Shown here one piece after another: positions 3,570 to 33,280 of a stretch of DNA of 39,409 nt (its first letter is position 1; the number at the start of each line of letters is the position of its first letter). The notes under the pieces were generated by a model that did not search any database, was not told where the DNA came from, and was given only the letters and a program-made list of their open reading frames with translations. The position numbers and the translations under genes are program-made. Origin of the DNA: a virus; the UHGV virus genome UHGV-0098635; one strand, 5' to 3'.

Positions 3570-3646
3570 TTACCGTTGAGGTAATGATTATGCGTATTTG
3601 GTTTGGTGTCAATAGATATGAGTTAAAAAAATTACCCTTAAGGTAA
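3570..3646 (-). promoter_or_regulatory. candidate leftward early promoter flanked by two TTACC-N5-GGTAA operator palindromes
   Basis: Minus-strand TTGACA (plus 3607-3612) and CATAAT (plus 3587-3592), though the spacer is only about 14 bp. Palindromes at 3570-3584 (TTACCGTTGAGGTAA) and 3632-3646 (TTACCCTTAAGGTAA). Confidence 0.5.
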
Positions 3647-13619: not shown

Positions 13620-13696
13620 GAACTGGAAGCAATGAGTTATGCCTTCCGTGGCTGTACTGGTTTACAGCATGAAGTCATCGCAATGGCGTCCTGCTG

Positions 13697-13782: not shown

Positions 13783-13859
13783 TGGCGTGGCATGCAGGAT
13801 TCGAACCTGCGACCAACCGCTTAGAAGGCGGTTGCTCTGTCCAACTGAGCTAATGCCAC
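13783..13859 (-). tRNA. tRNA-Arg, anticodon UCU (reads AGA)
   Basis: Hand-folded 77-nt cloverleaf: 7-bp acceptor stem GTGGCAT/ATGCCAC, D-arm GCTC..GAGC, anticodon loop CTTCTAA, T-arm GCAGG-TTCGAAT-CCTGC, discriminator G, encoded CCA. Confidence 0.85.
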
Positions 13860-30247: not shown

Positions 30248-30256
30248 GGAACAACA

Positions 30257-30670
30257 ATGAAGGAATTATTGCTGTTATCGGTATTTTTGATATCCGCTTG
30301 CTCGACATCCTATGATGTTTATGACGGTGTTGATAAGGCATATTGCGACAAAGTTAAAATGGATTTTTCTCTTGCCAAGACGGCGAAGGATAGTTGTATT
30401 GATCACTACGTCAAGACTTATACCAAGCCAGCCTCATCGGCATCTGATATTGCTGAAGGTGCTGTGTTTGAGTGTAACAAGGTGATATCCATCGCAGCGA
30501 GTTCTTCATACGATGCTGCTGTATGTGCAATGGCTGAAAGAAACGGCATGTCAGTGCAAAAAATTAATAGCATGATAAGCAGTAATGACGAAGCCAAAAT
30601 AAGAACTGATATCAGCTCGGTGAAAAAAGATGCCATGAACAGAGTTGTAAAATATCAGTCATCTTTATAA
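30257..30670 (+). CDS. lipoprotein, accessory gene
   Basis: 137-aa ORF with a signal peptide and lipobox (LISAC); AT-rich; last gene of the late operon before a terminator. Confidence 0.65.
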   Translation: MKELLLLSVFLISACSTSYDVYDGVDKAYCDKVKMDFSLAKTAKDSCIDHYVKTYTKPASSASDIAEGAVFECNKVISIAASSSYDAAVCAMAERNGMSVQKINSMISSNDEAKIRTDISSVKKDAMNRVVKYQSSL

Positions 30671-30673
30671 GTC

Positions 30674-30685
30674 GTGACATGTCAC
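30674..30685. repeat. perfect 12-bp palindrome GTGACATGTCAC, copy 2
   Basis: Lies 4 nt after the lipoprotein stop and abuts the terminator stem. Confidence 0.7.
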
Positions 30686-30710
30686 AGGCCGCTTTCGCGG
30701 CCTTGTTTTT
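30686..30710 (+). terminator. rho-independent terminator ending the late operon
   Basis: Stem AGGCCGC / GCGGCCT, loop TTTC, followed by TGTTTTT. Confidence 0.6.
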
Positions 30711-30870
30711 AACGAATGCCACCGCCACCCGGGCGGGAATCCGCAGAACGCCCACCGCAGCGGGAGCCGTCAGCGGCAGTATCGCTGTCGTGCTGACAAC
30801 GACCGGCAAAGGCCTGAGTTGAAGCTACCAGAGACAACAAAACGAACAGTGCAGCAAATGCTTTTTTCAT
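30709..30870 (-). CDS. small secreted peptide precursor
   Basis: Start taken at 30870 (MKKAF). Signal peptide MKKAFAALFVLLSLVASTQAFA followed by a roughly 31-aa Gly/Arg-rich peptide with two Cys. Confidence 0.4.
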   Translation of the reverse strand: MKKAFAALFVLLSLVASTQAFAGRCQHDSDTAADGSRCGGRSADSRPGGGGIR

Positions 30871-30951
30871 TGTGAAATTTCCATCTATAATCCACCTCAA
30901 TGCGGCGTCAATGAGTGTAGCACTGACTTTTGTTTCGTCCATAAAAAACTA

Positions 30952-31464
30952 CTATGCAGGCTTTTTGGATTTGTACGAATAATCCCACGGATAAACATTT
31001 CTACTAAGCGGAGCTGTATTCGTTCGTTCATGAAATAATTTTGTGAAATTCAATACGGAATCCATCCAAACTTTTGCGTTAGCTTTGGTGTGTGCGGGCG
31101 GGTCCCAATAAGCTAGTAAGGCTGCATCTCTTATTTCATTGACTGCATATATGAGATATGCGTTACTGGTTGGTTTTGGCCTGTAATTTCCTTGTTCATC
31201 AATCAATCCATATGACCACTCATCCCAACACTGTTCAGTACATGAGTATGAATATGATGCATATTCACCAATATTGACATGAACCTTTCTGAGATGGAAA
31301 CCTAATACTTCGTCTGGTCTTTCAAAAAGAGTATCTTTTCCCAGATCAGGATGATGACCATGACGCCAGTGTTGTTTAAAAGCATCTTTTAGCGAAATCA
31401 GAAAGTCATCAGTTTTAAACTCACCAGTAGGTATAACCTTCCCGCTATACTCACTCAAAAACAT
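30952..31464 (-). CDS. candidate toxin (weak YafO-like resemblance) of a two-gene accessory module
   Basis: 170-aa ORF overlapping the upstream gene by 14 nt; the segment GKDTLFERPDEVLGFHLRKVHVNI loosely resembles the YafO core FGRDALYD...KFERVAHIHL (recalled). Confidence 0.5.
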   Translation of the reverse strand: MFLSEYSGKVIPTGEFKTDDFLISLKDAFKQHWRHGHHPDLGKDTLFERPDEVLGFHLRKVHVNIGEYASYSYSCTEQCWDEWSYGLIDEQGNYRPKPTSNAYLIYAVNEIRDAALLAYWDPPAHTKANAKVWMDSVLNFTKLFHERTNTAPLSRNVYPWDYSYKSKKPA

Positions 31465-31777
31465 CGAATTCCTCTTCCTTCATATGCGTTTCTAATGAGT
31501 TAAGCTGGCGGAAAGATATCTCTTTTGATTCTGCAGATGAGAGCTTTTTTATCCGCTTTATATTCTTTGTGATAGGAATAGTCATTGTATGCACATCAGC
31601 GGATGCTCTTGGCTTTGTGCTGATAAAAATATGGCGCAATGCCGCATTTTCACTATTGAACGAGCCAATAGCTGATTTACGTGCTACAACCTTACCAGTA
31701 AAAATACGACTCTTGCTACGCTTTGCATGAGTTCCGCTTCTTACCGGACCTCTCATCACGAATCCAAGTTTTGTCAT
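31451..31777 (-). CDS. basic small protein, candidate antitoxin/partner
   Basis: 108-aa basic ORF, first gene of the operon, with GGAG RBS and an operator palindrome about 45 nt upstream. Confidence 0.5.
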   Translation of the reverse strand: MTKLGFVMRGPVRSGTHAKRSKSRIFTGKVVARKSAIGSFNSENAALRHIFISTKPRASADVHTMTIPITKNIKRIKKLSSAESKEISFRQLNSLETHMKEEEFDVFE

Positions 31778-31819
31778 CTTTAATCTCCGGTAAGTTACAG
31801 GTATAAAATAAAAACAGGT

Positions 31820-31834
31820 TTACCTTTAAGGTAA
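31820..31834 (-). promoter_or_regulatory. operator-like palindrome upstream of the accessory operon
   Basis: TTACCTTTAAGGTAA. Confidence 0.5.
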
Positions 31835-31906
31835 TAGTACGCTATTCACCCCCAGTCTGCAATCTGTACAGAATTATTTAAAGGCACATCCCTGTGCCGC
31901 CGCCCG

Positions 31907-32563
31907 TCAGAAGAACCCTGCCTTGTCGTTGATGTACTCCGCGTGGGTCTGGATATCACGCAGGCATTTGCTCACACCGACGATGTAGCAGAACATGGTG
32001 GTCAGCTCCGCCGCCGCGCCCGATACGTCGTGCCCGTCTTCCTGTAACTGGTTCAGCAGATTCATCAGCAGTGAGTTCTCCGTCAGGCCGAGAACACCAG
32101 ACGGAGAATGAATCAGGCTGCGGTAGCCGGGCTTCAGTGGGGCGCTGTATTCTTTTTTGTCTTCCAGCTTGATCGCCTCCATAATGGCGGGCATGAAGCC
32201 TGACAAGACCTTCTCCACTTTTGTTTCTTGTTGTCTTAAACGTTTCTCGCATTCAATGAAGTAGCGTCGCACCTGGCGACCTTTTTCGTTACGCTCGACC
32301 ATCGCCAGCTCTTTGGCTGTATCAAGGGTGAGGTGGTACTCTTTGCGGTTGTGGCCGCCTCTACCAGATGTTTGCTTTCCCAAATTGGAAAGCAAAATAT
32401 AGTCTTGATTTTCAATGAATTCGTATTCTGATATGCGATTTGTAATCCATGCTGCAAACACCTTTTTAACACCTAAAAAAGCGTGCAGATCGCGGGCATT
32501 ACAAAGTAGGGCTGTTTCGTTAGATATAGTGCCGTTGAATACGGGGATGAGTTGAGCGTTCAT
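31907..32563 (-). CDS. phage antirepressor, AntA-type N-terminal domain
   Basis: The N-terminus [32 protein letters not shown] matches the AntA/Ant antirepressor pattern; the C-terminal roughly 80 aa are paralogous to the ORF at 32881-33138. Confidence 0.75.
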
Positions 32564-32723
32564 GATGGCGTCTCCACTTAGCGAATTACATCACCACCGC
32601 TGAGACCAATCAGATGGTGGTGAACTGAACGGAGTTGGTCTTACCGGCCTAAGTGGTACCGGCGTCCTTTCGGACCCCCATTCAGCCCACCATAATTCTG
32701 GCATGACTGTGCTATACGCATAA

Positions 32724-32801
32724 AAAAACCACGTCTGGCGTGGTATGCGCCACTTAGTAATCCGGGAGACCAATCCCGGCACTGGATTTTGCCAGTGCCC
32801 G
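32724..32801 (-). ncRNA. structured non-coding segment with terminator; candidate small RNA or attenuator
   Basis: Minus-strand series of stem-loops: GGCACTGG/CCAGTGCC (plus 32780-32801), CCGGGA/TCCCGG, then CCACG-CCAGA-CGTGG followed by T7. The track ORF here (32591-32914) is judged spurious. Confidence 0.3.
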
Positions 32802-32834
32802 ATTACTATGGCACAAGAGGAGTGCGATGTAAAT

Positions 32835-32849
32835 TTACCGCAAAGGTAA
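32835..32849 (-). promoter_or_regulatory. operator-like palindrome
   Basis: TTACCGCAAAGGTAA. Confidence 0.5.
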
Positions 32850-32880
32850 ATATAAGCACTCATCTTGGTAATTTCAAGCC

Positions 32881-33138
32881 TTATCTGGTTTGTTTTCGTA
32901 ATTGTTCGGCACAATAGTCGAGATGTGTTTGCAGATCCCGCATAGACATCTGTGAGCTGGTGACGTAGTTAATCAGTGCAGTCAGTTCGGCAAGTGGGCC
33001 ATCGACATTAAATCCATCCTTATCGAGATCCCGGAGTAATTTCATCAAGTGCGATCCCTCCACTAGTGATCTGACGCCTCCCGGCGTGTGAATCCTTTCG
33101 GTAAATCCGTCTTCCAGTGGATAGTGATACTGCTGCAT
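32881..33138 (-). CDS. small antirepressor-like protein, paralog of the AntA C-terminal domain
   Basis: Start taken as the ATG at 33138 (MQQYHY) with GGAGAA RBS. IHTPGGVRSLVEGSHLMKLLRDLDKDGFNVDG...MRDLQTHLDY aligns with the AntA C-terminus [32 protein letters not shown]...[10 protein letters not shown]. Confidence 0.6.
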   Translation of the reverse strand: MQQYHYPLEDGFTERIHTPGGVRSLVEGSHLMKLLRDLDKDGFNVDGPLAELTALINYVTSSQMSMRDLQTHLDYCAEQLRKQTR

Positions 33139-33159
33139 CTTATCTTCTCCATGCAATAA

Positions 33160-33175
33160 CTGTATATTTATACAG
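33160..33175. promoter_or_regulatory. LexA (SOS) box
   Basis: CTGTATATTTATACAG; with flanks AACTGTATATTTATACAGTA it matches the 20-bp LexA consensus TACTGTATATATATACAGTA at 18 of 20 positions; about 22 nt upstream of the start at 33138. Confidence 0.75.
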
Positions 33176-33214: not shown

Positions 33215-33280
33215 TTACCCGAAAGGTAATATCTATTCGTATTTACAGTCTTTCTATCCATATGTGGTTTTTCGGGTAAT
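33215..33280 (+). promoter_or_regulatory. composite regulatory module in the antirepressor/tailspike divergent region
   Basis: TTACCCGAAAGGTAA (33215-33229), CATATGTGGTT (33259-33269), GGTAAT (33275-33280). Confidence 0.5.

Follow-up and report, generated by a model that had tools for sequence, protein, structure and literature searches.

Control of antirepressor synthesis by antisense RNA has been known since the work on phages P1 and P7, and RNase P processing and Rho-dependent polarity are features of the P1-type c4 system. In the immI region of these phages (c4-icd-ant1/ant2), an operator and promoter are followed by a hairpin, the short elements a1 and b1, a terminator, the C4 segment with its b' and a' stretches, and the matching elements a2 and b2 at a ribosome-binding site; the direct target is translation of icd, which lies between C4 and ant, and expression of ant is coupled to it. 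The c4 RNA of P1 represses Ant synthesis (PMC8546580; PMC8201110). The second closely related system is isrK-orf45 (STnc1160)-anrP of Gifsy-1, where one promoter yields the short terminated IsrK, a read-through mRNA, and the processed STnc1160 from a C4-like segment, and where overexpression of IsrK activates translation of AnrP (PMC4825925). The authors of that study explain their data through structures acting in cis and translational coupling via orf45, with no C4-type repressor invoked, and they regard SeqA as structurally homologous to IsrK (PMC4825925). The CI RNA of P4, with seqA and seqC, is likewise a processed antisense RNA that has target copies upstream and downstream on its own transcript; it acts through premature transcription termination of replication genes and not by blocking the ribosome-binding site of an antirepressor.

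The window analyzed here is the whole 39,409-nucleotide stretch of UHGV virus genome UHGV-0098635, which is a Uetakevirus (epsilon15/phiV10 group), a small integrating podovirus, whereas P1 is a plasmid prophage. The gap under study, positions 32564-32880 on the minus strand, lies between the stop codon of a small antirepressor gene (ending at 32881) and the ATG of a large one (32563), borders that an earlier note on this DNA had placed correctly. From the letters alone, that note had listed an operator palindrome, two hairpins, a terminator, and three alternating repeats, all five of which are present on the minus strand within these borders, and it had proposed either a small RNA derived from a LexA-controlled transcript or an attenuator gating read-through into the large gene. 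It overlooked an 85-nt C4 stem-loop, a second repeat triplet (a), and a promoter just 5' of hairpin 1. When the complete set of elements is placed beside the described systems, we consider it very likely that the gap is an antisense module of the immI type, which gates translation of the 218-aa antirepressor as in P1/P7 and at the isrK locus of Gifsy-1.

The 5' half of the module corresponds to an IsrK-like short RNA, or a1-b1 leader. A whole-window Rfam scan at gathering thresholds matches the isrK model (RF01394) to positions 32722-32798 on the minus strand with 67.7 bits against a gathering threshold of 50, and the match is full-length (model positions 1-77 of 77). Its parts are hairpin 1, hairpin 2 with a1 in the loop, b1 in the linker, and an intrinsic terminator. 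Both hairpins had been recognized in the earlier note: the perfect 8-bp hairpin 1 is formed by GGCACTGG (32799-32792) with CCAGTGCC (32785-32778), and the 6-bp hairpin 2 by CCGGGA (32779-32774) with TCCCGG (32767-32762), all on the minus strand. As both use the two C's at 32779-32778, full formation of one hairpin precludes that of the other; in the Rfam consensus they have 7 and 5 bp. Element a1 (UUGGUCU, 32767-32773, minus) is complementary to a' of C4, and b1 (CUAAGUGG, 32750-32757, minus) is complementary to b'. The short RNA ends at the terminator ACCACG-CCAGA-CGTGGT with its T7 tail (32721-32744, minus), the stem of which (32744-32728) comprises 6 bp, 4 of them GC, followed by T7 at 32727-32721. 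This terminator, also claimed before, was found independently of Rfam and coincides with the helix that forms the terminator in the isrK model. Comparison of 14 loci reveals compensatory changes in 7 of the 15 pairs of the IsrK stems. A related motif, c4-a1b1 (RF03163), stays under its gathering threshold at 32811-32759 (39.9 versus 46.7 bits), and the bases concerned are also covered by the stronger isrK match.

A predicted promoter for this RNA spans 32805-32833 on the minus strand, with a -35 element TTTACA (32833-32828), a 17-nt spacer, and an extended -10 element, TGc-CATAGT (-10 at 32810-32805). Its 3' end lies 7 nt ahead of the first model position, and the promoter scan places the start of the short RNA near 32798. 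The -35 element is weak in the window and degenerate in phiV10; nonetheless, a sigma-70-type promoter ending about 7 nt 5' of the first IsrK position is predicted in each of the 17 loci compared, among them loci of Stx phages, of APSE-2, and of a P1-like phage that have no LexA-controlled gene upstream. It follows from such a predicted dedicated promoter that the short RNA need not come from the LexA transcript. The proposal of a small RNA is thus borne out insofar as a short terminated RNA is predicted, while a LexA origin for it is unnecessary.

Directly adjacent to the isrK match, in the canonical order, the same strand carries a C4 antisense RNA (RF01695) at 32613-32697, an element of 85 nt that scores 61.2 bits against a gathering threshold of 45 and matches the model over its full length (1-87 of 87). 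Its predicted fold, with a minimum free energy of -40.7 kcal/mol, is a long basal stem enclosing two hairpins, and 10 of the 27 consensus pairs of its stems show compensatory changes across 16 loci. The basal stem resembles a tRNA acceptor stem, starts at G 32691, and is followed by a discriminator A and CCA that end at 32615; the predicted mature C4 (32691-32615, minus) would accordingly be an RNA of 77 nt with an ACCA end, which is expected to be cut from its precursor by RNase P. The length agrees with the title of Citron and Schuster (1992) on the P1 RNA, as cited in PMC8546580.

Two stretches of C4 are available for pairing. The b' stretch (CCACUUAG, 32649-32656, minus) forms the loop of C4 hairpin 2 and has a mean unpaired probability of 0.85, and a' (AGACCAA, 32635-32641, minus) is a single-stranded stretch with a mean unpaired probability of 0.995. 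Their downstream targets precede the start of the large antirepressor gene: a2 (UUGGUCU, 32603-32609, minus) lies just 3' of C4, and b2 (CUAAGUGG, 32581-32574 within the element at 32573-32581, minus) overlaps the Shine-Dalgarno sequence GGAG (32576-32573), which is situated 9 nt before the ant ATG. The duplexes are short, with 7 bp for a' with a2 and 8 bp for b' with b2, and have predicted energies of -9.2 kcal/mol for a and -12.4 kcal/mol for b.

The same elements account for the repeats. Three copies of an 8-mer in alternating orientation had been reported in the gap, and we find CTAAGTGG twice (32757-32750 and 32581-32574) with CCACTTAG once between them (32656-32649), all on the minus strand; the b 8-mer occurs nowhere else in the window. 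Rather than parts of an attenuator, they are the loop by which C4 recognizes its targets (b') and the two sites that it recognizes (b1 and b2). The overlooked a triplet is built in the same way, with GATTGGTCTC twice (32775-32766 and 32611-32602) and the facing AGACCAA once (32641-32635; core TTGGTCT/AGACCAA). When the gap was shuffled 20,000 times, 50 of the shuffles contained an 8-mer triplet of the type x..rc(x)..x; a chance origin of the repeats is excluded by the comparison with other loci.

That comparison drew on a wide set of relatives. The gap and its flanking genes (33340-31700) are 98.9% identical to phage phiv142-3, and the gap DNA is similar by blastn to 251 phage records, which include Stx phages, APSE-2, phiP27, a Klebsiella phage, and the c4-icd region of a P1-like Punavirus. 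Copies resembling the gap occur in 467 of 5,426 complete E. coli genomes, and 22 E. coli genome records have one that is at least 99% identical. The family to which the module belongs has long been known, and the module is common in E. coli prophages. Eighteen matching loci were fetched, all of which contain C4, with isrK just 5' of it in 16, and 17 were compared for a/b elements and promoters. Among these 17, which stem from unrelated phages and include the P1-like locus, there are at least 8 types of a' and at least 12 types of b', each complementary to the a1/a2 and b1/b2 of its own locus, and the targets keep their positions relative to C4, at about -76 and -60 upstream and at +4 and +32 to +36 downstream, the last at the ribosome-binding site. 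The per-locus table was the informative form of this analysis; an all-versus-all complementarity matrix was noisy because the windows used for it took in stem bases and allowed G-U pairs. This locus-specific co-variation of the a/b elements is, from sequence comparison, the strongest evidence that they are functional pairs of antisense and target.

The correspondence with P1/P7 immI extends over the order of elements, the common C4 fold, the predicted 77-nt RNA ending in CCA, an antirepressor as the target, and short a/b elements specific to each phage. The Punavirus locus in our set shows the full layout, with an operator-like sequence, hairpin, a1, b1, terminator, C4, a2, and b2 at the icd ribosome-binding site, and its upstream sequence presumably resembles the P1 C1 operator consensus. 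Several differences accompany this likeness. Whereas immI has icd, the window lacks it, no open reading frame but ant starts at b2, and b2 covers the Shine-Dalgarno sequence of ant itself. The antirepressor differs from that of P1/P7 in combining an AntA domain with an SPC32H-like C-terminal domain, the a/b sequences are different, and the C1 operator is replaced by the motif TTACC-N5-GGTAA, putatively for an SPC32H-type Rep. With Gifsy-1, the window shares an isrK match above threshold and a downstream antirepressor, and its sequence likewise predicts that one promoter gives rise to a terminated short RNA as well as a read-through mRNA, with a processed RNA from the C4 segment. In contrast to Gifsy-1, which couples orf45 to ant, it has no orf45-type reading frame ending at the ant start; its module stands behind a LexA-controlled small ant and carries a putative Rep operator, and the Rfam scan of the window gave no match to isrJ, which lies downstream in Gifsy-1. 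The Gifsy-1-like Salmonella phage SW-37 among the fetched loci (L010) does have isrJ downstream of C4 and ant (1717-1791), as in the published order isrK-anrP-isrJ.

The anatomy of promoter, leader, terminator, C4, and a2/b2 is found in the DNA together with complementarity, co-variation, and homology, and the steps beyond it rest on homology with these systems. On this basis, the promoter just 5' of 32798 would drive a leader bearing a1 and b1, and most transcripts would stop at the terminator and give the IsrK-like RNA of about 77 nt. Transcripts that read through would be cut to release the 77-nt C4 (32691-32615), which would pair with a2 and b2 on the ant mRNA and block ribosome binding, with polarity as a probable secondary effect. 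In a lysogen, C4 would thus keep the large Ant from being made. The short RNA, which has the same a/b sites, could compete for C4, and a higher level of it would unlock ant translation, with Rep and LexA setting the transcriptional input. Our literature search found no explicit model of IsrK as a sponge for C4. No icd- or orf45-like reading frame conserved across the loci was found either, and with neither an icd-like frame nor one that ends at the ant start, the coupling and Rho-dependent steps of the described systems are not simply transferable to this locus.

Either repression by C4 or activation by the short RNA may carry the greater weight, because the Gifsy-1 authors explain their data differently. 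Under their explanation applied to the window, the read-through mRNA would silence itself, the short RNA would refold it in trans, and the C4-like segment would be part of the mRNA or an upstream reading frame rather than a separate repressor. Genetic and structural data stand behind this model in Gifsy-1 (PMC4825925), and the isrK match is in line with it. We nevertheless judge it unlikely as the whole explanation here, as an orf45-like frame running up to the ant start is missing from the window, the loci do not share any frame through C4, and b2 lies directly on the ant Shine-Dalgarno sequence. Moreover, the C4 segment has a tRNA-like stem and ends in ACCA, and its predicted product, at 77 nt, is as long as the processed P1 RNA; Gifsy-1 itself yields the stable processed STnc1160 from its C4-like segment.

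Less probable still, and in our view quite improbable, is a simple attenuator, a small RNA cut from the LexA-controlled small ant transcript, or both, with the terminator alone deciding expression of the large ant after SOS. The sequence at 32744-32721 is a good intrinsic terminator and is placed to gate read-through, as happens at the isrK locus of Gifsy-1, which has been studied by experiment (PMC4825925), so this part of the attenuator proposal stands. There is also no minus-strand terminator between the small ant stop (32881) and the gap, and LexA-controlled transcripts should enter it. The predicted dedicated promoter in 17 of 17 loci, some of them without a LexA-controlled gene upstream, speaks against this explanation, which in addition leaves C4, the a/b triplets, and their locus-specific co-variation unaccounted for; control would be exerted chiefly on translation, by antisense pairing as in P1/P7 immI, rather than by a simple attenuator. 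That the gap is protein coding (through a 107-aa frame at 32914-32591 or a shorter internal one) or a decayed remnant is extremely improbable: an open frame does span it, and in some GenBank records the homologous region carries annotated hypothetical proteins, but frames, starts, and stops vary among loci, substitutions track RNA pairing, the elements are all intact and perfectly complementary to their cognates, and copies are widespread in E. coli. Compensatory changes, unconserved frames, and shuffles together speak against both coding and chance repeats.

In the preferred antisense reading, one further element may bear on how transcripts are used. The sequence GGUGGUGA at 32591-32598 (minus), outside the span of the Rfam C4 match (32697-32613), can base-pair with the 3' strand of the basal stem of C4 (32614-32621). 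The alternative hairpin that it could form has a predicted energy of -17.1 kcal/mol and would display a2 in its loop, and across 16 loci this helix is paired in 97.7% of cells, with compensatory change in 2 pairs. It could be speculated that this anti-stem may partition transcripts between C4 production and use as mRNA.

The module is flanked by two related antirepressors. The small gene upstream (32881-33141, minus; phrog_450) encodes an 86-aa protein of the SPC32H Ant type, 86.7% identical to SPC32H "ant" by tblastn and matching PDB 5D50 chain E with E=1.3e-46; a Pfam search of this frame gave no significant match, and its identification comes from PHROGs, tblastn, and the PDB search. The large gene downstream (31907-32563, minus; phrog_377) encodes the 218-aa protein with an AntA N-terminal domain (PF08346, E=4e-26) and a C-terminal domain that shares homology with the small Ant, at 43% identity over 74 aa (E=6e-17), and matches 5D50_E with E=4.6e-14. 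A Rep homologue at 4288-3704 matches 5D50_A (E=4e-42), so that the window has close homologues of both partners of the SPC32H Rep/Ant switch (PDB 5D50), with E=1e-46 for Ant.

Upstream of the small ant, and outside the gap, lies the LexA box CTGTATAAATATACAG (33160-33175, minus), an exact CTGT-N8-ACAG; epsilon15 has CTGTATGTTTATACAG at the corresponding position. LexA control of the small ant homologue of SPC32H was reportedly described by Kim and Ryu in 2013. Further matches to CTGT-N8-ACAG at 13652 and 18194 have AT-poor spacers and are probably due to chance. As no terminator follows the small ant, SOS-induced transcription probably also enters the cassette.

The palindrome reported in the earlier note, ATTTACC-TTTGC-GGTAAAT at 32851-32833 with the core TTACC-N5-GGTAA at 32849-32835, is a plausible operator, as the motif is annotated as a repressor site in the epsilon15 record. 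This putative Rep operator O2 (32833-32851) overlaps the -10 element of one candidate promoter and abuts the IsrK -35 element. A second putative operator, O1, with TTACC-N5-GGTAA at 33215-33229, lies upstream of the small ant promoter, and its homologous site in epsilon15 is annotated in the RefSeq record as protein_bind "repressor / lysogeny"; epsilon15 thus has a LexA box and a repressor palindrome upstream of ant as in the window. The motif TTACC-N5-GGTAA occurs at 13 sites in the window against 0.68 expected, the 15-nt palindromes being located at 3570, 3632, 4344, 4392, 6675, 6737, 10645, 10663, 13565, 14182, 31820, 32835, and 33215. Two of them lie between the Rep homologue and a divergent cro-like frame, and among the 17 loci compared, a palindrome at the O2 position is present only in those of Uetakevirus type. 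It is therefore plausible that the phage repressor Rep uses O2 as an operator, which would occupy the place of the C1 operator in P1. The sites are often paired and intergenic, flanking the Rep gene, after replication genes, before terminase genes, and around the ant cassette. Taken together, the scattered palindromes look like a multi-operator Rep regulon with a layout similar to that of the P1 C1 operators.

A more far-reaching hypothesis can be formulated, which we put forward as a tentative and rather doubtful one. The locus would be a two-key switch on a single repressor: LexA cleavage would turn on the small Ant, read-through together with inactivation of Rep would flood the cell with the IsrK-like decoy RNA, and C4 would be titrated so that the second Ant, with its C-terminal paralogue of the small Ant, is released. 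The a/b types would then be immunity groups at the RNA level, and GGUGGUGA would set the fate of transcripts as C4 or ant mRNA. Were this true, a/b groups would decide cross-induction and cross-silencing among co-resident prophages (Uetakevirus, Stx, P1-like, and APSE). In many E. coli Uetakeviruses, the SOS-controlled antirepressor is immediately followed by a second one, very likely gated by RNA, which may affect spontaneous induction and prophage cross-talk.

For annotation, the gap should read IsrK-like RNA followed by C4 antisense RNA. Neither is annotated in the GenBank and RefSeq records examined; in some of these the RNA region is covered by hypothetical or over-extended proteins, and a paper on a related Uetakevirus treats the antirepressor with no mention of an RNA module (PMC9782041). 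Among the fetched loci, annotated genes cross IsrK and/or C4 in L009 (831-1490), L013 (470-1618), L016 (580-1602), L007 (963-1136), and L018 (932-1099), under names such as "Rha protein," "phage antirepressor Ant," or hypothetical protein. These are probably over-extended starts or spurious frames, and the true start in those loci is likely to lie about 50 to 55 nt after C4, behind b2.

The whole cassette is absent from SPC32H, epsilon15, and PAS61, where the small ant is followed by a terminator, whereas the window adds an insert of about 2.6 kb (30251-32880) that begins with IsrK/C4 and supplies the second, larger Ant. Homology to SPC32H and PAS61 breaks exactly at 32881, the end of the small ant stop codon, and resumes at 30250. 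By this comparison, the IsrK/C4/large-Ant unit is an accessory insert directly behind the SOS-controlled ant, and 30251-32880 is a variable accessory ("moron") region. The part at about 30252-31818 also differs from phiv142-3. Just behind the third Rep-type palindrome (31820-31834), two overlapping frames occupy 30952-31777 on the minus strand, one of 108 aa (phrog_5933, with no assigned function) and one of 170 aa (phrog_1651), the latter with a sub-threshold Pfam match to a YafO-like toxin (E=9.5e-4); the pair may represent Rep-controlled accessory or toxin genes. Elsewhere in the window, a tRNA gene was detected at 13786-13859 on the minus strand (Rfam tRNA, 73.3 bits), and phiv142-3 has an annotated tRNA-Arg(tct) in the aligned region.
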